From contig NZ_JASGIY010000001.1 in the NCBI RefSeq assembly GCF_047601565.1, forward strand, positions 3,126,999 to 3,190,998: a stretch of 64,000 bases of DNA, written 5' to 3'. A program made the position numbers and the translations under genes. Below the pieces are notes generated by a model. That model searched no databases. It was not told the origin of the DNA and saw only the letters and a program-made list of their open reading frames with translations. Positions 1 to 43,690 of this stretch are shown piece by piece. The stretch comes from Rudaea sp. (lineage in GTDB: Bacteria; Pseudomonadota; Gammaproteobacteria; Xanthomonadales; Rhodanobacteraceae). The first letter of the stretch is position 1. Each line of letters starts with the position of its first letter.

Positions 1-490
1 GTTTCGATTCGGGGTTGCGCACCGGATACACCGGCGGCTCGCCACCACTGCGCGCGCCCGTGCCCGTTGCCCTCGGCGTCAAGGCTTCAAGCACAACCCG
101 GTTTTCACTTGCACGGCACAACTCGCGCAAGTCGCCCTCGTCGAAGCGCGCAGGCCGCAAGCCCTTCTCGTCACGCACCTGCGCCAGCTCGCCCGCCTTC
201 GTCTTGATCGTCAGTTTGTCGCCGTCCATGACGAAGTCGAACTCGGATTCAAGCTCACGCTGGAACGCTACCGCCGCGCCCTTGGCTGCCAGCCGCGCCG
301 ACATTTCAGACAGCGGCGTATCCCGCTGCACTCGCTTGTAATCCGCACGCGCCAAATCCCGCTCACCAGTCAGTGCCGTAATCTGCGCCTGCAATTCTTT
401 CGCCGCCGCTTTCGCTTGTTTCAATTCAGCCAATAATTCGGAATTGTGATTGCGCAAGCTCTCAATCTCTTTTTTCGTTTCGTCAGTCAT
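1..490 (-). CDS. Putative capsid scaffolding/coiled-coil phage protein (3' end outside window)
   Basis: Manual translation MTDETKKEIESLRNHNSELLAELKQAKAAAKELQAQITAL..., open to position 1; GAGG RBS overlapping the terL stop; absent from ORF track because it has no stop in the window. Confidence 0.55.
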   Translation of the reverse strand, partial: MTDETKKEIESLRNHNSELLAELKQAKAAAKELQAQITALTGERDLARADYKRVQRDTPLSEMSARLAAKGAAVAFQRELESEFDFVMDGDKLTIKTKAGELAQVRDEKGLRPARFDEGDLRELCRASENRVVLEALTPRATGTGARSGGEPPVYPVRNPESK

Positions 491-498
491 GTTTCGCC

Positions 499-1929
499 TC
501 ATAAACAAATGGAAAAACCAATCACGTTGCCGTCCAGAAATTGTGACGGGTCACGCCTCGACGCCTTGCACAAAACACCTGCAACCGCGTTCGCCAAGTC
601 GTCATGCGAACCGCGCCTGTGGTCGATACTGTCTTTGCCAGCGCGCGCCGTGCGCCGCTCAAGGCCGATTAGTTGCTGCGCCAGCCGGGGGTTATCCAGC
701 AATCGCGCCTTGCCGCTGTTCAGCAGCGGTAGCAGATTCAGATATAGATCACTGCGCACCATGTCGGCGACGGTGTATACAATGTCGCGTTTTGCAAATT
801 GTTCGCGCGGCCACTCGCCCGCATAACGGTCGCCGTACACCACGCGGATGCCGTACCGCTTCAGGTCATGTGCGAATTCGTCGACCACGGCTTCGGGACT
901 GAAGGGCGGCTTCACTTCGCGCACCATGTCCAAGATGATGCGGTCGTCACGCCTGTGCGCAATCGCCATTGTGAAACTATCCGCACTGCCGCCGCTCGGG
1001 TCGACGAAACCAAAATAACGAATACTCGCCTGCGGCTCGCGTTCGTGGATGCCGGTATCGGTGCAGTCCTTGATGACCTCGCGGCGCACGAACTGCTCAA
1101 CATCCGTGCGGAATAGCGCGCCATACTCTGCCGCTGCACTCTGCGGATCTCGTTCAGTGGCATCGTCAATGACCCGCTGCGGGACGGACGGGTTCATGTC
1201 CCGCGTCGCGGACTGCCACACAAGAACCGGCGCGCCGTCCTTGCCGTGGTACTTGTCGTGCGCGTCCCATAAAGTGCCCTTGCGCGCGTAAGGCGAACTG
1301 GCGCATATCAGCATAGCGCCCGGAATCGTCGCCATGCCCGGACGGATCGCGTTCAATATCTCGCTGTCTGGATCGGCCGCGTCGTCGCCCGTCGGCCAGA
1401 ATGCAATTTCGTCGGCCAATACTGCGCCGAAGGTGTAGCCGCGCGTCGCCCGGCTCGATGCCGTTGTGACTTCGATAACCGTGCCGTTCGTGAACTCGAA
1501 ACCTTCGGCAGTCTCGGACTTCACAATGCGTTTCACCATGGGAATGCCCTGCACCATGCCCGTGACGTAACGCATGATCGTGCGCGCCTGCTTTCGATCC
1601 GCAGCAAGTACTGCGATGGTTGCGACCTCGCCTGGTTGCAGATGTTGGCGGTACGTCCTGAAGCAAGCCAGCCAGACAGCGCACAACGCCATTACAAACG
1701 ATTTACCGGCACGCCTGCCGCACACCAACCACGCCTCGCCGAACGCGCTTGTAGGCGCGCTGGTGCGGCCTGTGTGCCGTTGGTAGATCGCCAGCATGTC
1801 GGCGTCCATTGGCAGGCCGAACAATGCGGCAAGGAACGCACGCCACGCCGTCCAGTCGCCGCGCGCAAACCACGGTCCGAACAGTTTCGGATCGGCGATT
1901 GCGTCAAGGATCGAAACGGATCGCTTCAT
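499..1929 (-). CDS. terL: Terminase large subunit
   Basis: Walker A GRRAGKS, Walker B VLADE, C-terminal nuclease motifs FVDPSGG and HDDLANA. Confidence 0.85.
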   Translation of the reverse strand: MKRSVSILDAIADPKLFGPWFARGDWTAWRAFLAALFGLPMDADMLAIYQRHTGRTSAPTSAFGEAWLVCGRRAGKSFVMALCAVWLACFRTYRQHLQPGEVATIAVLAADRKQARTIMRYVTGMVQGIPMVKRIVKSETAEGFEFTNGTVIEVTTASSRATRGYTFGAVLADEIAFWPTGDDAADPDSEILNAIRPGMATIPGAMLICASSPYARKGTLWDAHDKYHGKDGAPVLVWQSATRDMNPSVPQRVIDDATERDPQSAAAEYGALFRTDVEQFVRREVIKDCTDTGIHEREPQASIRYFGFVDPSGGSADSFTMAIAHRRDDRIILDMVREVKPPFSPEAVVDEFAHDLKRYGIRVVYGDRYAGEWPREQFAKRDIVYTVADMVRSDLYLNLLPLLNSGKARLLDNPRLAQQLIGLERRTARAGKDSIDHRRGSHDDLANAVAGVLCKASRRDPSQFLDGNVIGFSICL

Positions 1930-2333
1930 GCCTCGCCGTTCAAGTATTCGTGCAGGCTCGGCGTCACGTCGCGCGGCACACGATCCACGCCCAGCGTTTC
2001 GAGAAAACGGCGCTGCGCGTTTGCCAGTCGCGCGAACAAGTCCAAGTCAGCAGGATCGGGTTCGCCGCCGCGCTCGCGTGTCTGCGTCAAGCGGCCTTCA
2101 ATGGCGAGTAGTTCAACCTCGAACGCAGTGCAGCGTCGGATCAGCAGGCGTTGCGGCTCGCTGGCCCGATCTTCGCCGCCAACGTGATCCGTCAACGCGC
2201 TGGCCGTGTCGCGGTACAGGCGCGCCCACAACGAACGTCCGTCAATGCCCGGCAAAAGTGCGCGGCCATTGGTAAGGCGCGCGCGCGTTGTGGCGGCTTT
2301 CGGCTTGCGATCAGGTTGCGTCATGCCTGCCAT
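1926..2333 (-). CDS. Putative terminase small subunit
   Basis: ~135 aa helical protein (GIDGRSLWARLYRD...) coupled to terL by an ATGA overlap; start codon uncertain. Confidence 0.55.
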   Translation of the reverse strand: MAGMTQPDRKPKAATTRARLTNGRALLPGIDGRSLWARLYRDTASALTDHVGGEDRASEPQRLLIRRCTAFEVELLAIEGRLTQTRERGGEPDPADLDLFARLANAQRRFLETLGVDRVPRDVTPSLHEYLNGEA

Positions 2334-2685
2334 TGTCCCGGACACATACCCGGACATGAAAGTACATTGCGCGGACAAATGTAATGATATCAATGATATT
2401 TGTGATAATAACAGGGGATTGATCGTCCTTTTTGAAAATCGGACGCCAGCGGCACGGCTGTATACTTTTTAGCGTTTTGCGTCTCAAAATGCGTGAGACA
2501 GCAACCCGTATCCAGCTTCACCGAACACAATGCAGGTGAACCGATCAGGTCGGCGTCCGGTTCGCGGCCAGCGTCACCAGCACCAGCCACCAGCCAGAGC
2601 ACGATCAAGAACACCAGCCAGAGCACAGAAGCCAGAGCGCAGAGCAAGATCAAGAGCGCGCTACGCTTGGTATATATAGAAAGGT

Positions 2686-2809
2686 ACACGGTAGGCGTGT
2701 TAATCGAAGGCCGAAAAAGTGGCTGACTGACACGGCAGGCGTGTTAATTCAGGGGGCGAAGTTCGGCAATTAACACGGTAGGCGTGTCAGATTGACACGG
2801 TAGCCGTGT
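2686..2809. repeat. Four 15-bp ACACGGTAGGCGTGT-type repeats (putative iterons/origin)
   Basis: Copies at 2686, 2730, 2773 and 2795; adjacent TATATATAGA and CCAGCCAGAGCAC repeats. Confidence 0.75.
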
Positions 2810-3236
2810 TGGCGTTCGTGTTTTCGGCTGCGGCGATTCGTGACTTCCATGTGCCGCTCGCGACACGAGTAGCGCGCACGTCCAGCTTGCCGTCGCACTC
2901 GTCGATTGGCAGCCACGTCAACGCGAAAAGGCTGCACTTGTGCAGGCCGCCTTGTCGCGTCGGTTCGATCAGGCCGGACTCCAATAGTTCACGTTGCGCG
3001 CGAAAGAGCGTGTCACGCGAGCGCCAACCCAGCGAGCGCATGATTCGCCAAGCGGTAGCCAGGTCGCCGTTATTGTTGCCTCGGTATTGCGAACCCAGGT
3101 CGCACAACAATTTGACAGCGTGCGCAGACAGGCCGCGATAGGACGGCGCGGCCATGACGGCATGTGGCAGCGCGAAGAATCCGCCGCCGTCAGCACGTCC
3201 CTTGTGCTTGCGGCGGTCGCGTTTCTTGAGGCTCAT
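2787..3236 (-). CDS. Helix-turn-helix protein, putative replication initiator
   Basis: GGFFALPHAVM...LSAHAVKLLCDL...NNGDL pattern resembles phage winged-helix Rep N-termini; lies next to the iterons. Confidence 0.55.
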   Translation of the reverse strand: MSLKKRDRRKHKGRADGGGFFALPHAVMAAPSYRGLSAHAVKLLCDLGSQYRGNNNGDLATAWRIMRSLGWRSRDTLFRAQRELLESGLIEPTRQGGLHKCSLFALTWLPIDECDGKLDVRATRVASGTWKSRIAAAENTNANTATVSI

Positions 3237-4237
3237 TCCATGCCCTCCTCGCCGCCGCCGTTGTCGTCCTCGTCTTGGGTGAGCCACCGTTTTAGTTGGT
3301 CGCGCTCGTCCAGTTCGGCGTCAAGTGCTTGGTGAAAGGCGTCCATATTGATATTCGCCTTGATCGCGTCCGTTACCAGCGCGGCCAACAGGTCAGGCGG
3401 CAGTGCTTCGGCCTGTACCGTCTCGCCGTGAAAGTTGCGGCGGTCGGTATCTTTCGGCGGCGCGGTCAACAACCCGTACTCGGCGATGTGTTCCGGCAGT
3501 ACGGCCACGCGGCGAAACTCCACCGAGCCGCCCATGTCCGAGATGAATGCTCGAATGTCCTCGTCCAGTGAGCCGAACACATGCACGCCGCTCGGATCGT
3601 GGTCGCCGACGTGCAGCACCAGCGCGTTGCCCCATGACGAGAATTTCTCCGCCATGTTGTGCTTGACGGTCACGGAGTCGAAACCGCCGCTCGAATAGAC
3701 GGGGATCGAATACTGGTTGCCGACACGCTCAAGTTGCGGTGCCATGCCTTGCGCTTCGCACCACAAGACAACGCGGCGCGGCTGTCCGCGTTGTCTGTCG
3801 ATCCGGTATTTGCTGGCTGTGTGGATGATCGCTCTACGCGCCTCGTCCACATTGTTCCAACCAACATCATCGGCGACATGAAAGCCGTCGTCGCGGATTG
3901 AAGAAAACGGGATCATTCGTGCGCGGCGAGCACGATTCAGCGTCTCCAGCAAACGATCATAGGCGGCCTCGGTTTTCTCGTAGTCGATTGTTCCGACAAG
4001 CCGGTAAAAAATCTGCCGGGCGGTCAACGGCAGAAAACGTTTGTACTCGATCAGTACGGCTCCGATGCGCTCGACAAGTTCACGGCTTGCCGCTTGTGGA
4101 CGCCAGTCGATAAAACCGCGCGGCCTGCCGTGAATTGCTTTGGGGAGTGCTGTATACTTGTTCGCGCCAGTGTTGAAGTTTGCGGCCTCGGCGTTCGCAG
4201 CGTCGGGGCCGTGCTGTTTCTGGGGATTAGCTGCCAT
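3233..4237 (-). CDS. Spo11/topoisomerase VI-A-like winged-helix plus Toprim protein
   Basis: LTARQIFYRL (TxRxxxY motif), VVLWCE, SSGGF and HVGDHDPSG (Toprim E and DxD). Confidence 0.7.
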   Translation of the reverse strand: MAANPQKQHGPDAANAEAANFNTGANKYTALPKAIHGRPRGFIDWRPQAASRELVERIGAVLIEYKRFLPLTARQIFYRLVGTIDYEKTEAAYDRLLETLNRARRARMIPFSSIRDDGFHVADDVGWNNVDEARRAIIHTASKYRIDRQRGQPRRVVLWCEAQGMAPQLERVGNQYSIPVYSSGGFDSVTVKHNMAEKFSSWGNALVLHVGDHDPSGVHVFGSLDEDIRAFISDMGGSVEFRRVAVLPEHIAEYGLLTAPPKDTDRRNFHGETVQAEALPPDLLAALVTDAIKANINMDAFHQALDAELDERDQLKRWLTQDEDDNGGGEEGME

Positions 4238-4487
4238 CCGCTGCGCCCTCCGTGGCCTTGCTCTCTGTAATCAATGCCGCGGCAAGAGTCAGCGCAAGCC
4301 GTGCGACGCCGTTCAAGCGCGACGCCAGCAATTCCAGCTTGTCCGGCGACGGACGCGAAGCCGCCTCCCAAATCATTCCGGCGACGTGATCGGGCAAATC
4401 TGCGAGTTGGCGGCGCAAAACTTCGAGATCGGGCGCGCAGGGTGCGTGCGTGCCGTACACGCGGCGCATGTGGTCGGCGGCGATCAT
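4227..4487 (-). CDS. Hypothetical protein
   Basis: Overlaps both neighbouring genes in an operon-like arrangement. Confidence 0.5.
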   Translation of the reverse strand: MIAADHMRRVYGTHAPCAPDLEVLRRQLADLPDHVAGMIWEAASRPSPDKLELLASRLNGVARLALTLAAALITESKATEGAADGS

Positions 4488-4699
4488 GCGGCCACCTCGC
4501 GCTGCGAATCGATCCACGCGATAACGTCGGCGCGACGGTACAGGATGCGACCGTGCATGCGGATCGCGGGCGGTGCCGTGCGCTTCCAGCGCCAGCGGCG
4601 GATCGTGCGGGTAGTGACGCCGAGTTCAGCGGCGAGTGCGGCTATCGTGAGATAGTCGGCGAGGATCGGCGTAGCCGATGCGGTGACAGGTTGTGACAT
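4484..4699 (-). CDS. AlpA/excisionase-type HTH protein
   Basis: YLTIAALAAELGVTTRTIRRWR...GRILYRRADVIAWI. Confidence 0.8.
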   Translation of the reverse strand: MSQPVTASATPILADYLTIAALAAELGVTTRTIRRWRWKRTAPPAIRMHGRILYRRADVIAWIDSQREVAA

Positions 4700-4777
4700 T
4701 GTGTGTGCTCCGGTGTAGTACCGGATACGCACACTATGCGCATGGGTTGCCCGTGCCGAGATAGCCTGCGCGCAGCG

Positions 4778-4803
4778 CCTAGACGCTGCGCGCAGCGTCT
4801 AGG
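4778..4803. promoter_or_regulatory. Perfect 26-bp palindrome upstream of alpA/xis
   Basis: CCTAGACGCTGCG-CGCAGCGTCTAGG, with a partial tandem copy at 4766-4782. Confidence 0.5.
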
Positions 4804-5302
4804 CTCCGCGTAGCCATTTGCGGACTGTGCTGAAAGGTCGGTTGACGCGCAGCCCGATCATTTCCGCCGCATTGTCCTTATTCTTGAACTTCGCGCGCTC
4901 GGCTTTGTAGATGCGCAACACGTCGGCTTTGTCCGCTTTATCGGCGGTATGTGATGCGTGAGCGGCATACTTCACTACTTCACTCAACATCTTTTCTGCG
5001 CGCCCAAGCGCGGCGACGTACATCCCTGCGTACAGCACGCACTCGATGGCCGTGTCGTCATTGCCGGCAAGCCAATACTTACGCGCGGAGTCAAGCAAGC
5101 GAAGCGCGCAGCTCGCAACCTCTTTTTGCTCATCAAATGCTACGCCTCGTTTTGTCGCTTTGCCGTCTATCTCACCCACAAGTGTTTCCGACAAACGTAT
5201 GGATAGGGTTTGCAAATGGGCTTTGTCCCATTGCGCCCATGTGCGCGTGCCGGACGCGCCCGAAGGCGCGCCCTTGCTCTTGGTCGTCCGCTTTGTTGCC
5301 AT
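4799..5302 (-). CDS. Hypothetical protein with possible C-terminal HTH
   Basis: 167 aa; C-terminus NAAEMIGLRVNRPFSTVRKWL. Confidence 0.55.
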   Translation of the reverse strand: MATKRTTKSKGAPSGASGTRTWAQWDKAHLQTLSIRLSETLVGEIDGKATKRGVAFDEQKEVASCALRLLDSARKYWLAGNDDTAIECVLYAGMYVAALGRAEKMLSEVVKYAAHASHTADKADKADVLRIYKAERAKFKNKDNAAEMIGLRVNRPFSTVRKWLRGA

Positions 5303-5307
5303 GCGAG

Positions 5308-5559
5308 TTACGCCTGCTCGCGGAAACGAATCAAGTCTGTCGCCTCGAACCCGAATCGTTTAGCGAGGCTTGAACAACGCTCGTTGTCCGTCTCGCTTCC
5401 TATGACAAGGTAGGTTGGGCCGTCTGCGCGCTGCTCGAATCCGCCGGTCTGCGGCCAATTCGCGCCCGTCAGCCGCTTATCGTCGGGTCGGCAAATGAAC
5501 ACTCTGCGATCAGAAAAATCGCCGTCAAACGGCGCGGTGTTACTCTCTTTCGTAGCCAT
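5308..5559 (-). CDS. Hypothetical protein
   Basis: 83 aa with a GAGG RBS, preceded by a 13-bp-stem hairpin at 5588-5620. Confidence 0.5.
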   Translation of the reverse strand: MATKESNTAPFDGDFSDRRVFICRPDDKRLTGANWPQTGGFEQRADGPTYLVIGSETDNERCSSLAKRFGFEATDLIRFREQA

Positions 5560-5645
5560 GATGAAGTCCTCTTCTTCGTTGTGGTGAGGCTCGCCAGCAT
5601 GTAGGAGATGCTGGCGAGCCGCTTACCGGCACATGCCGGATTCGG

Positions 5646-6956
5646 TTACGCCTTGCGCTTGATCGGTGTCACGCTGGCGTCGGTGCCGGTGACGAGCCGG
5701 TGCAGTGCTTCGAGTGCCGCGCGTTTTTCGTCAAGATAGTCGTGCTTGTCATAGTGCCGCACCTGCACGCCGCCCAGTCCGTGCGATTGCAGTTGCCCGC
5801 GTATCTCGCGCGAAACACCAAGCGCGGCGAGCCGAGTTTCTACCGTGCGCCTCAAGTCGCCGATGGTGAACCTGCTTTCGATCTCGCCCGCATCCTGCAT
5901 CGCGGTCACAACCGGACACAGACGGTTGTGTAGCACGTCATAGCCCGCAGGCGTCTTGCCGCCGTCGATACTGAAAAGGTAGTCGCCTTTACCGCGCAGC
6001 GTCTCTAGCGCGTCCTGCGCGGATTCGATCAGCGGCACGATATGGATGCGCGGCTTCTCGCGCTTGCCCTTCGGATCGCGCAGGCGGATCGCCTTCGCGT
6101 CGCGGTCATAGTCGGCGACGGTGACGCGCGCCAGTTGCTGCACGCGCTGCCCGCCGGTCAGAAGGTGAAGCCGCAGCAGCGCACCGTCCGCGCCGTTCAT
6201 GGCCTCGATGCGACGCCAGTAGCTGCGAAGCTCGGCAATGGATAACGCGCGCTCTCGCGTTCCGCCAGTACCGCCGTCAACGGTCGGCAGTTCGGCCATT
6301 GGATTCGATCGCAAACCTAGAACGCGCAAAGACTGCGGCGCGCTCGCGTCCAGTCTCGCACGCACGGCGGCGCTGTATGCGGCCCGCAGGTAGCTTCGCA
6401 GCTTGCCCGCGCTGCGCGCCTTGCCAGCCTGCACCAGCGGCGCAAGGATCGTCACGCCGTCGTCGGGCTGGATATCTGCGGCAGGTGTCGCCCATAGCTC
6501 CGCGTGCGCGCGCATTACGTGATTCTCTGCCACGTCGCGGACGTTGCCCGCAGACACCTTGCCTTGCGCTTCAAGATGATCGGCGTAGGCCAGCAGTAGT
6601 GCACCAAGCGTTTGCGTCGCGACTTTCTGCGCGCGCTGCGCGCGCTCGACCTTCTCTTCGCGCTTGCGCTCCTTGTCGGCAAGCGGGTCGCCACCTAGTG
6701 CGACCTCGGCTTTGAGCTTGTGCGCCCGCTCGCGCGCTGCGGTGATCGAAAGGCCCGGATGCGGCCCGACGGTGATACGCCGCTCCTTGCCGTCGACGAA
6801 GTAATTGATGACGAAAGCCGCAGCGCCGTTCGGCGTCACGCGCAAGCCGAAACCCTTCGGTGCCTTCGCGTGGTCGTCGTAGAAGATGACGTTGCGGTCG
6901 GTGCCCTCGATGATCTTCGCGCGGATGAACGACTCTGTAATTGTATACTTTGCCAT
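5646..6956 (-). CDS. int: Tyrosine integrase with arm-binding domain (P4-like)
   Basis: N-terminal GFGLRV...FVINY arm domain; catalytic GQR, K, DLRRT, HGL and Y (RHYDKHDY). Confidence 0.93.
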   Translation of the reverse strand: MAKYTITESFIRAKIIEGTDRNVIFYDDHAKAPKGFGLRVTPNGAAAFVINYFVDGKERRITVGPHPGLSITAARERAHKLKAEVALGGDPLADKERKREEKVERAQRAQKVATQTLGALLLAYADHLEAQGKVSAGNVRDVAENHVMRAHAELWATPAADIQPDDGVTILAPLVQAGKARSAGKLRSYLRAAYSAAVRARLDASAPQSLRVLGLRSNPMAELPTVDGGTGGTRERALSIAELRSYWRRIEAMNGADGALLRLHLLTGGQRVQQLARVTVADYDRDAKAIRLRDPKGKREKPRIHIVPLIESAQDALETLRGKGDYLFSIDGGKTPAGYDVLHNRLCPVVTAMQDAGEIESRFTIGDLRRTVETRLAALGVSREIRGQLQSHGLGGVQVRHYDKHDYLDEKRAALEALHRLVTGTDASVTPIKRKA

Positions 6957-7081
6957 GTCGCAAGCCCTCGGTTTGAGTCCCGAACCCGGACACGACACGA
7001 ACATGAATCGGCAGGTGATAATCTATCCCTTGCCCGAATCGGCGTGAAAATTTCGCCTCTCGCCGATTAGTCACCTGTTTC

Positions 7082-7148
7082 TGTGTCCGGGTCTGTGTCC
7101 GGGAAATTGTGCGTAATCTGTGTCCGGCATTGTCCGCGCCGTGTCCGG
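7082..7148. repeat. TGTCCGG repeat cluster, probable integrase arm-type sites
   Basis: Copies at 7082, 7094, 7119, 7131 (partial) and 7141; inverted copy at 6986; between int and att. Confidence 0.65.
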
Positions 7149-7230
7149 GATTGTCAACACAAACACCAGATGAAATGCGGACTCTGGCGACATAATTAAG
7201 AAAATACAAGGGATTACGAACTATGAAAAA

Positions 7231-7280
7231 GGTGACTGTTAATCACTTGGTCGGCGGTTCGAGCCCGTCTCGGGGAGCCA
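7231..7280 (+). other. att site: 3' part of tRNA-Asn(GTT), not a full tRNA
   Basis: GGTGA-CTGTTAA-TCACT anticodon arm, T-arm GGTTCGAG and CCA end; acceptor 5' strand and D-arm are absent upstream. Confidence 0.85.
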
Positions 7281-8447: not shown

Positions 8448-9670
<1,223 letters not shown>

Positions 9671-34853: not shown

Positions 34854-34930
<77 letters not shown>

Positions 34931-38272: not shown

Positions 38273-40576
38273 TCATGCCGCCTCCGCAAGATATTGTTCG
38301 GAGGCGGTCTGCCAAGCCTCGACGCACTCTCCCAGCCATATCGTTTCCTGAGCGCCGGGCGGCATCCGATGCGCATCGAACAGCACGATCGAACGCATGG
38401 TATGCGCCGCGCGGGCGACGTATCGCTTGCGCTGCACTTCGATACGATGCCGGCGCCTCAGCACGGCGCGCGTCTTCGGCAGCGTCGTCGACCGCAAGCC
38501 GTTCTGTGCGCAGAATGCTTTGTATACTTTGTACACTTCTTCCATCGGCGCCGGAACCAGCTTGAGCGCCCCGAGTTCCTGCGCTTGCAGCGCGTAGTAG
38601 AAGCGCGAAACGGTGTCCAGAGAGTCGTCGACCAGGTCGGCCTTCGCGTTCGTGTACGGCGGTGGCGTCGCTTCGTTGAAGTCGCCGAGGTCGAGGGTCA
38701 GCAGGTAGTCGTGCAAGGCCTCGACGCCGCCGGCTTGAATCTCCGCGGCGACCTCGCGGTAAAACTGCGGCTCGCGCTTCTCTGGCGTGAAGATCACGCA
38801 ATGCCGGCGGTCGTCCTCGTCGATCGCAACGGGTGTGCCTTCGTTCGACAGGAACACCATGTTCACGTGGTTGCGCTCGACGTAGGCCGGCATGCCCTTG
38901 GGATTGATGCGGATGGTCGATCCGGTGATGAAGGCCTTCAGCCGGTTCTTGACGTGAAACACCTCGGTTCGTGCGATGACCTCGTCCGCGATCAGGAACA
39001 GCATGCGCGAAGCCCAATCGTTGAACTTGTCCTCGATCGCGAGCTGGTCGAGCACGCGCCCATAAGGGCCGTAGATCGATAGCACGGCCTCGAAGAAAAG
39101 GTTCTTGCCGGTACCCTGCGGGCCGTGCACGACGAGTGCGGTTTTCATCTTCGCGCCCGGATGTTGAATCGGGAACGCGAGCCAGCGCAGCACCCATGCG
39201 AAGAGGTCATTCGGCCGCAAGTCGCCGCTGGTCATGTGCCGCAGCACGTCGAGCAGCTTTTCGCAGGCCCCTGCGTGCGGCGACGTCGGCCAGCCTGCCC
39301 ACAGGTTGCAGGTGATGGCGGCATCGTGGCCGGTCGGATCGAAGCCGACCTCTTCGGGGCGCACCATCTTCCGCTCGGGCGATTCCATCCAACTGCGGAA
39401 AAGCTCGCGATGCGCGCAGGCGTCGCGCAGATCGGAAAGCGCAAGGCGTCGGCGCTGCGCATGATCGAAGGCGATGCCTTGGCCGCCGTAGACCAACGAG
39501 AACCGCGGCAGCAACTCGTCGACCGTCTGGAACGGTCGCATCGCATCATCGGCGCCGGCCTTCGCCTTGACCATCAAGGTCTGCGACCATTTCAGTGCGG
39601 CAAGCTTGGCATAGATCTGGACGCGCACGGCTTGCAGGCCTTCGGCCAGGTGCAAATCGTTGAAGTCGGTCAGCTTGACCTTGCGCTTGTCGAACGCCTC
39701 GCGTCGCGCCGCCTCGTCGGCGAAGATCGGCTTGATCCAAGCGCCGCCCGACTCCGCGGCGGCGGTGCTGGCTGCGGTAACGCCCGGATTGCCTTCGGTG
39801 AAAGCGTCGTCGTCAGCGCAGATCAGCAGGCGCACGTTCCGATATCGCTTGCGCAAGGCGGCGGTGACCGGCGCCAGATTGCCTGCGTCGAAGGCGACGG
39901 CCGTCGGAATCTGCGTCGCCTCGTACAGGCTCGCCGCGGTCGCGTAGCCTTCGGCGATCAGGACCAAGCCGCCCGGCGCCGGCATGCCGAGAAGATGGAA
40001 GCGTTCTTTTTTCACCAAGCCGCGCGGCCAGAATTCTTTTTCGGGCCGATGGTCCGCCTTCGCCCGCTTGCGCGACCGGATCACTTGCAGACCCCAAATT
40101 TTCCCGTGCACGTCGAGCATCGGCACGACGAGCGCGCCGGACGGAGAGAATCGCACGCCATGCGCGCCGATGCCCTTGCGCGCCAAGTATTCGCTGTCGC
40201 CGGACTCGCTGCACTTTGTCCATGCCGCGCGTGCGCGCTCCGCGGCGCGCTTGGCCTCGCCGGCGCGGACGCGTTCGGCGGCTTCGCGATCCTCACGCGT
40301 CCGCGCCTTGATCGCCGCGCGTTGTTCCTGCGTCAAATCGAACTTCTTCAGTTCGATTTTCTGCGCGCCGTTGTCGGCCCCATGCCAGACGCCGAACGAG
40401 CCGAAAATCAGCGTGTCGCCGCGCGACGTGACGACCTCATGCAGCGAGTACCAGCCGCGCCGCTCGCGGTCGCCCTCGACCTTGCAACGCACGAGCCGGC
40501 CGGTTTCGAGTGTGTCGACGAGCAGGCCGGCGCCGCGCAACTGGTCGAGCACGCTGGCATGGTTCGCCGCCGTCAT
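38273..40576 (-). CDS. Toprim primase fused to an SF3-type (DUF5906-like) helicase
   Basis: IAEGYATA, ICADDD, TDFNDL; Walker A GPQGTGKN and LIADE. Confidence 0.88.
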   Translation of the reverse strand: MTAANHASVLDQLRGAGLLVDTLETGRLVRCKVEGDRERRGWYSLHEVVTSRGDTLIFGSFGVWHGADNGAQKIELKKFDLTQEQRAAIKARTREDREAAERVRAGEAKRAAERARAAWTKCSESGDSEYLARKGIGAHGVRFSPSGALVVPMLDVHGKIWGLQVIRSRKRAKADHRPEKEFWPRGLVKKERFHLLGMPAPGGLVLIAEGYATAASLYEATQIPTAVAFDAGNLAPVTAALRKRYRNVRLLICADDDAFTEGNPGVTAASTAAAESGGAWIKPIFADEAARREAFDKRKVKLTDFNDLHLAEGLQAVRVQIYAKLAALKWSQTLMVKAKAGADDAMRPFQTVDELLPRFSLVYGGQGIAFDHAQRRRLALSDLRDACAHRELFRSWMESPERKMVRPEEVGFDPTGHDAAITCNLWAGWPTSPHAGACEKLLDVLRHMTSGDLRPNDLFAWVLRWLAFPIQHPGAKMKTALVVHGPQGTGKNLFFEAVLSIYGPYGRVLDQLAIEDKFNDWASRMLFLIADEVIARTEVFHVKNRLKAFITGSTIRINPKGMPAYVERNHVNMVFLSNEGTPVAIDEDDRRHCVIFTPEKREPQFYREVAAEIQAGGVEALHDYLLTLDLGDFNEATPPPYTNAKADLVDDSLDTVSRFYYALQAQELGALKLVPAPMEEVYKVYKAFCAQNGLRSTTLPKTRAVLRRRHRIEVQRKRYVARAAHTMRSIVLFDAHRMPPGAQETIWLGECVEAWQTASEQYLAEAA

Positions 40577-40721
40577 TTCACTAACTCCGGGCCGCACTGA
40601 CTACGCGGAAAATGCGGCTTTTTTACCCGCGAGGGTACTCGCCAAAAAGAACCTAAGCGCCGGCTAACTGAAATGGAAACTGCGCGTCGTCGCGTCGGCT
40701 TTGCAATCGCGGGGAGCGGGG

Positions 40722-42060: not shown

Positions 42061-42283
42061 CTGCCGCGAGGGCTGCGCGTATCTCTGCTACGGGCAGATC
42101 GCGCACGCGTGCGAAGATGTAGATGTCGGTCGACGAGTATTCTTCGGTCAGGTAGGCAATCACGGCGTCTACAACTTGGCGGATGCCGTTCCTGTCGGTA
42201 TTGAGTCGAGCTGCAGCACCGCGCGTCAATTCTTCTGCAAGCTCTTCTTTGTGGAAACGCTTGCGCGGCGTGTTGCGGCTCAC
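41975..42283 (-). CDS. Mor/C-like transcription activator
   Basis: GTG start overlapping the int TGA; EEYSSTDIYI...GESIRSIRRKYKVGQRTVRKIL. Confidence 0.55.
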   Translation of the reverse strand: MSRNTPRKRFHKEELAEELTRGAAARLNTDRNGIRQVVDAVIAYLTEEYSSTDIYIFARVRDLPVAEIRAALAAGESIRSIRRKYKVGQRTVRKILPDNCNV

Positions 42284-43497
42284 GGCTTCCCCTTTGCTTT
42301 CGTCAGCGTGGCAACTGCCGCGGCCTTGTGCTCCGGCGCCAAGTGCGCGTAGCGCTGCGTCATCTCGAAATCGGAATGCCCCAACAGTTCCTTGACGGTA
42401 TACAAATCCACTCCGGCCATGACGAGCTTGCTCGCGAAGTGATGCCGAAGATCGTGGAACCGGAAATTGTCGAGCTTCGCCAGTTCGACCAGTGTCGCCC
42501 AACTGCGATTGACATTGGTCATGCGCTCGCCGGTCGGGCCGGGAAAGACCAGGCCGGTTCCTTGGCCCGATTTGCGCCAACGCCTCAGCACGTCGAGCGC
42601 ATCCGCATTCAACGGCACGTAGCGCGTCTTGCCGGACTTCGCGGTATCGAACCGGACCGTGAGCAGGTTGCGCGCCAGGTCGACCGCTTCCCACGTCAGG
42701 GAGAACAGTTCGCCGCGGCGCAGGCCGGTGTTCATCGCGAGCAGCACCAGCGGCTGCAGGTGGTCGCAGAATTCATCCTTGTCCCACATGCGCCGGCCAT
42801 CGCCGCCGCGCTCTCTGCACCATGCGTTGCCGCTCAAACGGTGCGTGCGCATCGCCGTCTCGCGATTCTTCAGCGCGGACAGCAAGGCCTTTTCCTCGTC
42901 CGGTGACAAAAACCGCACGCGACCGTTGTCTTCACCCTTGGCGCGCTTCACGCCGACCAATGGATGCGTTGCCAGCATGCCCCATTCGACCGCCTTTGCG
43001 ATCGACGCCTTGATGCGGATCAGGTCTCGGTTCACCGTCGCGGGCTTGATGCCGGCTTTGAGCCGCTCGACCTTGGTTTTCTCCACTGCCCAAGCTGTCA
43101 CGTCACCCAAGGGTCGCGCATAGAAGTGCCCCCACACGGATTTGATCGCCGCCACGGTTGCGGCGCCGGCCTTGCGCTCGACCTTGGCCCAAGGCGCGTA
43201 GTGCTTGTCCATGAACTCGCCGAACGTCGCCGCCCTGGCCTTCGGCTTCGTGCGCTCCCCCGTCTTTGCGTAATGCCCGAGCTTTACCTTGGCTTGCGTC
43301 CGTGCACTTTCGACAGTAGTAACCGGGTATGGGCCGATGCGCTCGCGTACACCTCGCCGCAGATCGATGTAGAACGTCTTCACGCCGCTGGGCTGCACGC
43401 GCAGCAGCAAGCCGATTATCTCGGTGTCGCGGATTTCGTATGGCGACGCGAACGGCACGGCGCCCCCGACCATCTTCGCAGTGAGTTTCGCCTTCAT
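42280..43497 (-). CDS. int: Tyrosine integrase
   Basis: Arm domain GLLLRVQPSG; TGLRRGEL, AKSGK, FHDLRH, LLGH and TQRYAH. Confidence 0.94.
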   Translation of the reverse strand: MKAKLTAKMVGGAVPFASPYEIRDTEIIGLLLRVQPSGVKTFYIDLRRGVRERIGPYPVTTVESARTQAKVKLGHYAKTGERTKPKARAATFGEFMDKHYAPWAKVERKAGAATVAAIKSVWGHFYARPLGDVTAWAVEKTKVERLKAGIKPATVNRDLIRIKASIAKAVEWGMLATHPLVGVKRAKGEDNGRVRFLSPDEEKALLSALKNRETAMRTHRLSGNAWCRERGGDGRRMWDKDEFCDHLQPLVLLAMNTGLRRGELFSLTWEAVDLARNLLTVRFDTAKSGKTRYVPLNADALDVLRRWRKSGQGTGLVFPGPTGERMTNVNRSWATLVELAKLDNFRFHDLRHHFASKLVMAGVDLYTVKELLGHSDFEMTQRYAHLAPEHKAAAVATLTKAKGKP

Positions 43498-43690
43498 CGC
43501 GTAAATGCTCCCGTCAGTACGGTAAGTGCGGATGCCCATGCACGCCGTAAGTGCGTGGTAAGTGCATCAGGAGCTATTTTGCGATGTAACGCGGCATAAC
43601 GCAAGTTTGGGAAAATTCTTATAACTATTTGATTTTATTAGTATATATTTGATTCTGTTAGAAATTTTCCAGACGGGAAAATTAAGTTCT

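Follow-up and report, generated by a model that had tools for sequence, protein, structure and literature searches.

The 64,000-nt stretch of a Rudaea sp. genome analysed here (the window, C1:3126999-3190998 of a 4.26-Mb assembly) holds an open reading frame (ORF) whose product, judged by its residues and family profile, is a Topo Mini-A protein with an intact active site. Topo Mini-As are a published family of homologues of the A subunit of DNA topoisomerase VI (Topo VI A), and this one falls in a divergent clade. This Mini-A gene is the third of a four-gene translationally coupled operon, in which it is preceded by an excisionase-like helix-turn-helix (HTH) gene and a small ORF, orf96, and followed by the gene for a 149-aa winged-helix protein. 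The operon is part of a phage-satellite-like island that encodes a capsid protein and a terminase and is integrated at tRNA-Asn. Taken together, our reading is that the divergent Mini-A would assist replication modules as an optional break-and-rejoin enzyme and would not take over from a primase-helicase, and that the winged-helix protein recognises the origin; we put the chances of this reading at slightly better than even.

3233-4237, minus strand: Topo Mini-A gene, 334 aa, with a 5Y-CAP winged helix, a Toprim domain and a C-terminal T2BI-type box.

The catalytic-tyrosine stretch of the Mini-A ORF, LPLTARQIFYRL, contains R74, F77 and Y78 (R-x-x-F-Y, with the Y78 codon at 4004-4006), the Toprim glutamate is found in WCE (E161, codon 3755-3757), and GDHDPSG at 3587-3607 provides the DxDxxG signature with D212, D214 and G217. 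As far as residues can tell, the active site is thus an intact one of the Topo VI-A type. The catalytic-motif residues are identical in all 37 close homologues that were aligned (conserved core of 290 aa), and R74, Y78, E161, D212 and D214 stay unchanged from 76% down to 23% identity, a range that includes phage Mini-As of 23-29% identity. Since they are invariant in close homologues as well as in the distant phage proteins, these motifs can be regarded as family signatures and not as chance occurrences.

Mini-As were described by Takahashi et al. in 2019 (PMC7671362) as Topo VI A-subunit homologues of ~300 aa with the motifs RxxY/FY, E and DxDxxG, encoded without a B subunit by viruses and proviruses, and of unknown function. 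In that study the N-terminal B-binding part is absent from these proteins, and a conserved C-terminal box, the xWELDAL or 'T2BI' box, is said to define the family and is proposed to gate the catalytic tyrosine. The ORF of the window shares the 5Y-CAP plus Toprim core, the RxxF/YY, E and DxDxxG motifs and the size of ~300 aa; it stands alone with no B subunit nearby, and it is borne by a mobile element, an att-flanked island with integrase, large terminase (TerL) and capsid genes. PHROG 6247 ('DNA topoisomerase') matches it over residues 42-322 at E 7e-38, and hhalign of a profile of the 37 close homologues against phage Mini-As (PaMx25 gp51, JWF gp109, RDJL Phi 2 gp23 and the second Mini-A copy of the same genome) returned a probability of 100% with E 2.3e-42 over 269 columns; PaMx25 is a Nipunavirus like NP1, which Takahashi et al. 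took as a representative (PMC7671362). By tblastn, 76 phage records were matched with E values down to 1e-21, many of them annotated as DNA topoisomerase, and all matches in sequenced phages are below 60% identity. Sequence searches of the ORF against Pfam, NCBIfam and PDB sequences gave no significant match, and the sole PADLOC match was to DruE and non-significant (E 0.02).

The window clade differs from the described Mini-As in the C-terminal box, which reads TVQAEAL (T273-VQAEAL-279) instead of xWELDAL. Aligned with the phage version SWELDAL, only the A and the L are common, the D being replaced by E and the E by Q, and we take TVQAEAL to be a clade-level variant within Mini-A. Patterns including this box gave 401 matches in species-representative genomes, while the whole Mini-A family comprises 5,455 clusters at 50% identity (E ≤ 0.001). 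Further differences are that the window clade is found mainly in small integrase islands and Streptomyces plasmids, and that the gene of the window is coupled to a RepA_N-like initiator gene. Longer Mini-A homologues were checked for domain fusions, which yielded one sub-threshold PcrA/UvrD Tudor-like match in the N-terminal extension of one homologue (P0383, E 2e-4); other long homologues have extensions without a recognisable domain, and their starts may be mis-called.

The AlphaFold2 model of Mini-A (pLDDT 86.8) was compared with the PDB by Foldseek, and the sole match below E 1e-3 is Methanosarcina mazei Topo VI A (9o0g_A; E 6.7e-4, probability 0.99, 271 columns). Topo VI A (1d3y_A) is also what a profile search of the PDB gave, at a non-significant E of 0.53, and Foldseek against the viral BFVD library returned nothing informative. 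Mini-A resembles Topo VI A and Spo11 in being closest to them among PDB structures and in sharing the catalytic tyrosine and the Toprim metal ligands, but it is shorter, has no B or TOPOVIBL partner, shows no significant sequence similarity and reaches a low global template-modelling (TM) score.

The four ORFs of the operon form an unbroken chain of overlaps: the HTH_17 gene and orf96 share an ATGA, orf96 and Mini-A overlap by 11 nt, and the TGA of Mini-A (3233-3235) overlaps the ATG of the 149-aa gene (3234-3236), again as ATGA. The other operon genes and the repeats that follow them are:

4484-4732, minus strand: HTH_17/excisionase-like gene, first gene of the operon (Pfam HTH_17, E 6.7e-12; PHROG 66 excisionase).
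4227-4517, minus strand: orf96, no recognisable family; 86 aa if the ATG at 4485-4487 is used.
2787-3236, minus strand: 149-aa winged-helix gene that begins in the ATGA shared with Mini-A; putative origin-binding initiator of RepA_N/DnaD-N-like type.
2686-2813: four semi-palindromic iterons, ACACG(C/G)CT(A/G)CCGTGT, with start-to-start distances of 22, 43 and 44 nt; putative origin.
2666-2683: AT-rich palindrome GGTATATATAGAAAG (TATATATA), an inverted repeat adjoining the iteron array; candidate unwinding element.
2588-2640: second repeat set, three copies of CACCAGCCAGAGCAC, between the origin and the packaging genes (orf155/TerL).

Of the four iterons, the first is embedded in the 3'-terminal part of the winged-helix gene, whose stop codon is overlapped by the second. 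The AlphaFold2 model of the 149-aa protein is a winged helix (pLDDT 83), for which the top four Foldseek matches are 4pt7, 4pql and two chains of 5kbj (E 0.02-0.05, probability 0.77-0.93); DnaD-N (2v79), RctB domain 1 and 4ro3 follow in a list that is weak as a whole (E 0.02-0.5). According to Barth et al. (PMC7145576), 4PT7 and 4PTA are N-terminal domains of staphylococcal plasmid RepA, 5KBJ is a RepA-iteron complex and 4RO3 is the N-terminal domain of RepA from Vibrio PLE, a satellite that has no primase or helicase with its RepA and depends on its helper phage for replication. The same source describes the iterons of RepA_N replicons as inverted repeats around a poly-A tract (PMC7145576). 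The PHROG 'DnaD-like helicase loader' profile matches the 149-aa protein weakly (E 3.5e-3), and the Pfam scan gave no match to it, RepA_N at threshold included. A precomputed RepA_N label (PF06970) on one homologue, P0156, was not reproduced at E ≤ 0.001.

The winged-helix protein has 207 homologues. Three divergent relatives of it have an array of 4-5 iterons within the 3' end of their gene or directly behind it, namely those of Alkalilacustris (L074; L numbers denote the loci that we compared), Tabrizicola (L043) and a second island of the same Rudaea genome (L091). Although the iteron sequences differ among these three and the window, spacings of ~22-23 and 44-45 nt are common to them, and those of L074 and L043 are inverted repeats around a poly-A tract, of the form TGTC-N-AAAA-N-GACA. 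The arrays of L074 (6029-6172) and L043 (3210-3358) even have an identical spacing pattern of 23, 32, 22 and 44 nt with different repeat sequences. That divergent relatives keep 3'-end iterons with shared spacing is a stronger argument than the fold for reading the 149-aa protein as an origin-binding initiator, and origin recognition thus most likely belongs to this protein and its four iterons. In analogy to the Vibrio PLE, such a replicon without its own primase or helicase would presumably borrow the replisome of a helper or of the host. With the RepA proteins of pSK41/pTZ2162 and of PLE, the 149-aa protein shares semi-palindromic iterons in or near its own gene and, as far as the weak matches go, a fold like that of their winged-helix N-terminal domain, and with PLE RepA also the lack of a primase or helicase and use by a phage satellite. 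It differs from RepA_N initiators in that a short conserved tail takes the place of their C-terminal domain and in that the fold matches are weak, and PLE differs from the present island in having no Mini-A. For the copies of CACCAGCCAGAGCAC, a pac site, an operator and a further origin element are all conceivable.

Are Mini-A and the winged-helix gene then one module? The two are adjacent and coupled, as overlapping or adjoining genes, at four loci: the window, L074, L091 and the metagenomic L108. No primase or helicase was seen in these four elements, of which L074 is an alphaproteobacterial element resembling capsid-forming phage-inducible chromosomal islands (cfPICIs), with a portal, a protease-capsid fusion, a small terminase (TerS) and TerL. 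The initial annotation, made from the sequence of the window, had proposed a two-gene replication module; the recurrence of the pair agrees with this, but the pair is not an obligate one. Among 54 metagenomic loci in which the winged-helix gene has at least 1.1 kb of upstream sequence, Mini-A lies upstream of it in two. Winged-helix proteins 65-69% identical to that of the window occur without Mini-A, and three islands inspected individually hold only an integrase, small genes and the winged-helix gene, with a capsid gene also in one of them. Thus, Mini-A and the winged-helix gene are separable.

More generally, the winged-helix family marks widespread tiny integrase islands of ~3-6 kb (L093 from Rhodanobacter sp. 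C03, L094/L095, L096 and most of L097-L176), consisting of an integrase, one to three small ORFs, the winged-helix gene and sometimes a capsid or DUF5681 gene, with no other replication gene. RepA_N is considered rare in Proteobacteria, and we put these islands forward as candidate minimal RepA_N-type satellites in this phylum. Had orf96 of the window been homologous to the small ORFs found before the winged-helix gene where Mini-A is missing, this would have pointed to an insertion; BLAST found no similarity.

Seen from the side of Mini-A, the association is looser still. A tblastn search with the other proteins of the island against 80 genomic Mini-A loci found almost no common neighbours, and hidden Markov models were therefore derived from clusters of neighbouring proteins, so that the tallies that follow are lower bounds. 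An integrase lies within 6 kb of Mini-A in 47 of the 80 loci and AlpA in 40, at least 28 have a primase and/or helicase nearby (of Toprim_3/DUF7146, DUF3987, AAA_25 or Prim-Pol types), and the winged-helix family is near Mini-A in only ~4-5. Overlap with a downstream gene is common, the next ORF overlapping the Mini-A stop by 1-14 nt in 37/80 loci, yet the family of this ORF varies; in L085-L087 it is the Mini-A start that is overlapped, by a Prim-Pol gene. In the virulent phage PaMx25, Mini-A is flanked by DNA ligase and Sak4, with a Cas4-type exonuclease, a helicase and a primase in the vicinity, and in RDJL Phi 2, likewise virulent, it adjoins the DNA polymerase. Streptomyces carry Mini-A on plasmids and beside FtsK-like genes: 31 of 40 plasmid records with this Mini-A clade are from this genus, and its chromosomal copies (L040, L053, L056, L073) adjoin an FtsK/SpoIIIE-like gene and one for a conserved 490-aa protein of unknown family, neighbours that suggest elements resembling actinomycete integrative and conjugative elements (AICEs).

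As the winged-helix replicon usually occurs without Mini-A, and Mini-A accompanies every kind of initiator, we read Mini-A as an optional accessory of replication modules. Islands with only the winged-helix gene go without primase and helicase as well; it is thus the RepA_N-type replicon as such that lacks a primase, and Mini-A does not make up for this lack. The position noted in the initial annotation, where PICIs carry a primase-helicase, might suggest that Mini-A substitutes for one, but this is disfavoured by the loci with a primase or helicase beside Mini-A and by a 71%-identical paralogue in the same setting.

The genome has three Mini-A genes, each in a small integrase island. This paralogue, the third of them, lies on the second contig (C2:100000-107400; L092:8000-15400), directly after a Toprim_3 protein and an AAA_25/DnaB-like helicase. 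The second copy is that of the second C1 island (C1:3079700-3086800; L091:7700-14800); it is 26% identical to the copy of the window and has the canonical WELDAL box. Behind it come a 234-aa member of the same winged-helix family, whose gene has iterons inside its 3' end, and then a DUF5681 TerS-like gene.

An island of 9.15 kb is delimited by the last 49 nt of tRNA-Asn, at window -1919..-1871, and their copy at 7232-7280, which differs at one position. The intact tRNA-Asn (attL) lies 1.9 kb left of the window, and the left part of this island (window -1870..7280) falls in L002:18129-19999. On the minus strand, the gene order is integrase, orf83, orf167, HTH_17 gene, orf96, Mini-A, 149-aa gene, iterons, orf155, TerL and scaffold-like gene, then, outside the window, the capsid gene and an 86-aa ORF. 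Next to the operon and its repeats, the features are:

7232-7280, plus strand: attR, 49-nt copy of the tRNA-Asn 3' end, one mismatch.
5646-7004, minus strand: tyrosine integrase (Pfam Arm-DNA-bind_3 and Phage_integrase; PHROG 1).
4799-5302, minus strand: orf167, function unknown; a 34%-identical homologue occupies the same position in the genome's third Mini-A island.
1926-2393, minus strand: orf155, putative small terminase by position only, directly upstream of TerL with a 4-nt overlap.
499-1929, minus strand: large terminase, TerL (PHROG 2, E 4.9e-27; Pfam Terminase_6N).
1-508, minus strand: coiled-coil scaffold-like gene, 178 aa, extending 28 nt beyond the window.
Outside the window, after the scaffold-like gene: HK97-type major capsid gene, 368 aa (PHROG 247, E 1e-85).
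Element 2 of the window, a separate island: tRNA-Pro 34854-34930; Toprim_3 plus DUF5906 primase-helicase 38273-40597 (minus strand); integrase 42280-43539.

Scans of the island ORFs against Pfam, PHROG, NCBIfam and PADLOC, in which orf155 and the left-end 86-aa ORF were not covered by every library, found no primase, no helicase and no GHKL or Topo VI-B protein, nor a portal or protease. Orf155 has no family match in Pfam, PHROG or NCBIfam. A tblastn search of this genome for other TerL or capsid homologues found none, so that nothing points to a helper residing in it. Beyond attR, some 1.2 kb further right at 8448-9670, two overlapping plus-strand ORFs (106 and 301 aa) look from their sequences like a candidate transposase ORF pair of the IS3 family.

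What the initial annotation had read from the sequence is all borne out by these data: a Spo11/Topo VI-A-like tyrosine motif with the Toprim E and DxD is present and invariant in homologues, with Topo VI A as top PDB match; the gene is coupled by ATGA (3233-3236) to an HTH gene that ends in iterons; a satellite setting is confirmed by the att-flanked island; neither Topo VI-B nor a primase is visible among the island ORFs scanned, also when the island is followed beyond the window; and element 2 does carry a primase-helicase. The idea that the protein might be of an undescribed kind has to be given up, as it belongs to the published Topo Mini-A family (PMC7671362), for which an initiator role in skuldviruses has already been proposed.

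The island has in common with phage-inducible chromosomal islands (PICIs) and cfPICIs an integrase, a regulator of the excisionase/AlpA type, a replication module that includes an origin and, behind these, packaging and capsid genes, all with a shared orientation, as well as a size of ~9 kb, integration at a tRNA and att sites, and its relative L074 has the full cfPICI head set. It differs from these in its replication module, which is composed of Mini-A and a RepA_N-like protein where they have a primase-helicase, and from cfPICIs in that it has TerL, scaffold and major capsid genes, but no portal, protease or head-tail adaptors among its genes.

So what could Mini-A do in such a replicon? 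By homology to the Topo VI-A/Spo11 fold, it would act as a dimer in which Tyr78 attacks the DNA backbone while E161, D212 and D214 bind Mg2+, and cleavage would leave a 5'-phosphotyrosyl link and a free 3'-OH, making the break reversible and resealable. A programmed reversible break would then fall in the element's own replicating DNA, where it could offer a borrowed replisome an entry point, or could switch replication from circle-to-circle to a rolling-circle or break-induced mode, making concatemers for the terminase of the island. Such a programmed break in the element's own DNA, for replisome loading or a concatemer switch, is the role that we tentatively favour; it extends a published hypothesis, in which the Mini-A of archaeal skuldviruses, viruses without any other replication gene, acts as a replication initiator by means of a break (bioRxiv 10.1101/2021.07.29.453957). 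The enzymatic activity of Mini-A, its dimeric action, its target DNA and its biological role are all points that we infer. A stricter version, in which Mini-A, the RepA_N-like protein and the iterons form a self-sufficient replicon free of primase and helicase, and the 3'-OH, or a broken intermediate for the borrowed replisome, comes from a tyrosine-linked break of Spo11 type at the origin or close by, seems doubtful to us.

Nearly as likely as the programmed break is that Mini-A is an ATP-independent topoisomerase or decatenase for small circular replicons and phage replication intermediates, without any part in starting synthesis. Its homology to the A subunits of type IIB topoisomerases, with all residues for cleavage and religation kept, speaks for this, as does the C-terminal box with its proposed gating of the tyrosine (PMC7671362). 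Furthermore, Mini-A is found beside P4-type primase-helicases, RepA_N-like proteins, Prim-Pol, phage replisomes and, in WyrdV4, an HUH Rep, in short every kind of initiator, a pattern that suggests a role independent of how replication starts. However, Mini-A has no ATPase or gate subunit to work with, it lacks the N-terminal part that would bind B (PMC7671362), and host gyrase and Topo IV already supply these functions. At the other end, Mini-A and the winged-helix protein might form an obligate two-gene initiator, in which the latter directs Mini-A to the iterons and a nick primes rolling-circle replication, replacing the primase-helicase. The coupling of the two genes at the four loci, the lack of any other replication gene in these elements, the 3'-OH that a 5'-tyrosyl link would leave, as with HUH Rep proteins, and the skuldvirus precedent (bioRxiv 10.1101/2021.07.29.453957) all fit; yet the partners mostly live apart, in the winged-helix loci as well as in the Mini-A loci, and islands with only the winged-helix gene lack primase and helicase just the same, which makes this reading unlikely.

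Lastly, satellites carry anti-helper nucleases such as NixI of PLE, and Mini-A, being optional among related replicons, could be an interference or defence nuclease that cuts the DNA of a helper phage or another invader, comparable in role to NixI or JetD. The initial annotation had raised both a helper-cleaving nuclease and a link to JetD of Wadjet. The optional nature of the gene stands, but the nuclease itself is disfavoured and in our view very unlikely: virulent phages, plasmids of Streptomyces and viruses of archaea carry members of the family too, Mini-A is far better conserved (40-76% identity across phyla) than its neighbouring genes, and PADLOC offers only the non-significant DruE. 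The link to JetD falls away, as there is no PADLOC match to JetD, no JetABC or SMC-like neighbour and no JetD chain in the top 50 Foldseek matches, and the likeness is limited to the general idea of Toprim plus CAP.

We must take into account that a number of observations weigh against the reading of Mini-A as a break-and-rejoin accessory beside an origin-binding initiator. Topo VI-A is not known to cut DNA unaided by its B subunit and ATP, which makes activity of a stand-alone Mini-A an assumption, and the literature searched reports no biochemical activity for any Mini-A. The global superposition of the Mini-A model on Topo VI-A is poor (TM 0.27, root-mean-square deviation 16 Å), which may reflect a different relative placement of the two domains; the fold assignment depends on the local 3Di alignment and on sequence profiles. 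Likewise, the best fold match of the winged-helix protein has an E of no better than 0.02. In most relatives the winged-helix replicon evidently works without Mini-A, which is thus not needed for initiation there. Moreover, Mini-A also accompanies complete primase-helicase modules and, in archaeal viruses, an HUH Rep, a co-occurrence with which a general topological role fits at least as well as initiation by a break. Finally, three or more copies of a 12-mer were found just downstream of Mini-A in 18% of the sequence windows examined there, against 3% and 12% in two control windows, an enrichment (18% vs 3-12%) too weak to claim a general association of Mini-A with iteron arrays.

Mini-A in a satellite-type island with a RepA_N-like replicon is a context that has not been described before. 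Also absent from the literature searched are that Mini-A genes are common in small integrase/AlpA satellite-type islands, and that a whole clade of them has a C-terminal box different from the one said to define the family. Since the naming of this large family in 2019, that literature has reported neither an activity nor a biological role for it. Mini-A also bears on the origin of type IIB topoisomerases and Spo11, one scenario for which has a stand-alone viral A subunit as the ancestor. If a break at or near the origin does supply the replicon of the island with its start, this would add a third chemical class of break-primed initiators to HUH and Rep_trans, and would be both the first function assigned to a Mini-A and a bacterial counterpart of the skuldvirus hypothesis. 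Whichever role applies, the locus provides a compact test bed, since the only replication candidates in a 9-kb island are Mini-A, the 149-aa initiator-like protein and an iteron array of 130 bp, and the same genome offers natural controls in the 71%-identical paralogue behind a primase and helicase and the 26%-identical paralogue paired with the same initiator family. Its main value, then, is as a compact and well-controlled system for finding the function of Mini-A.

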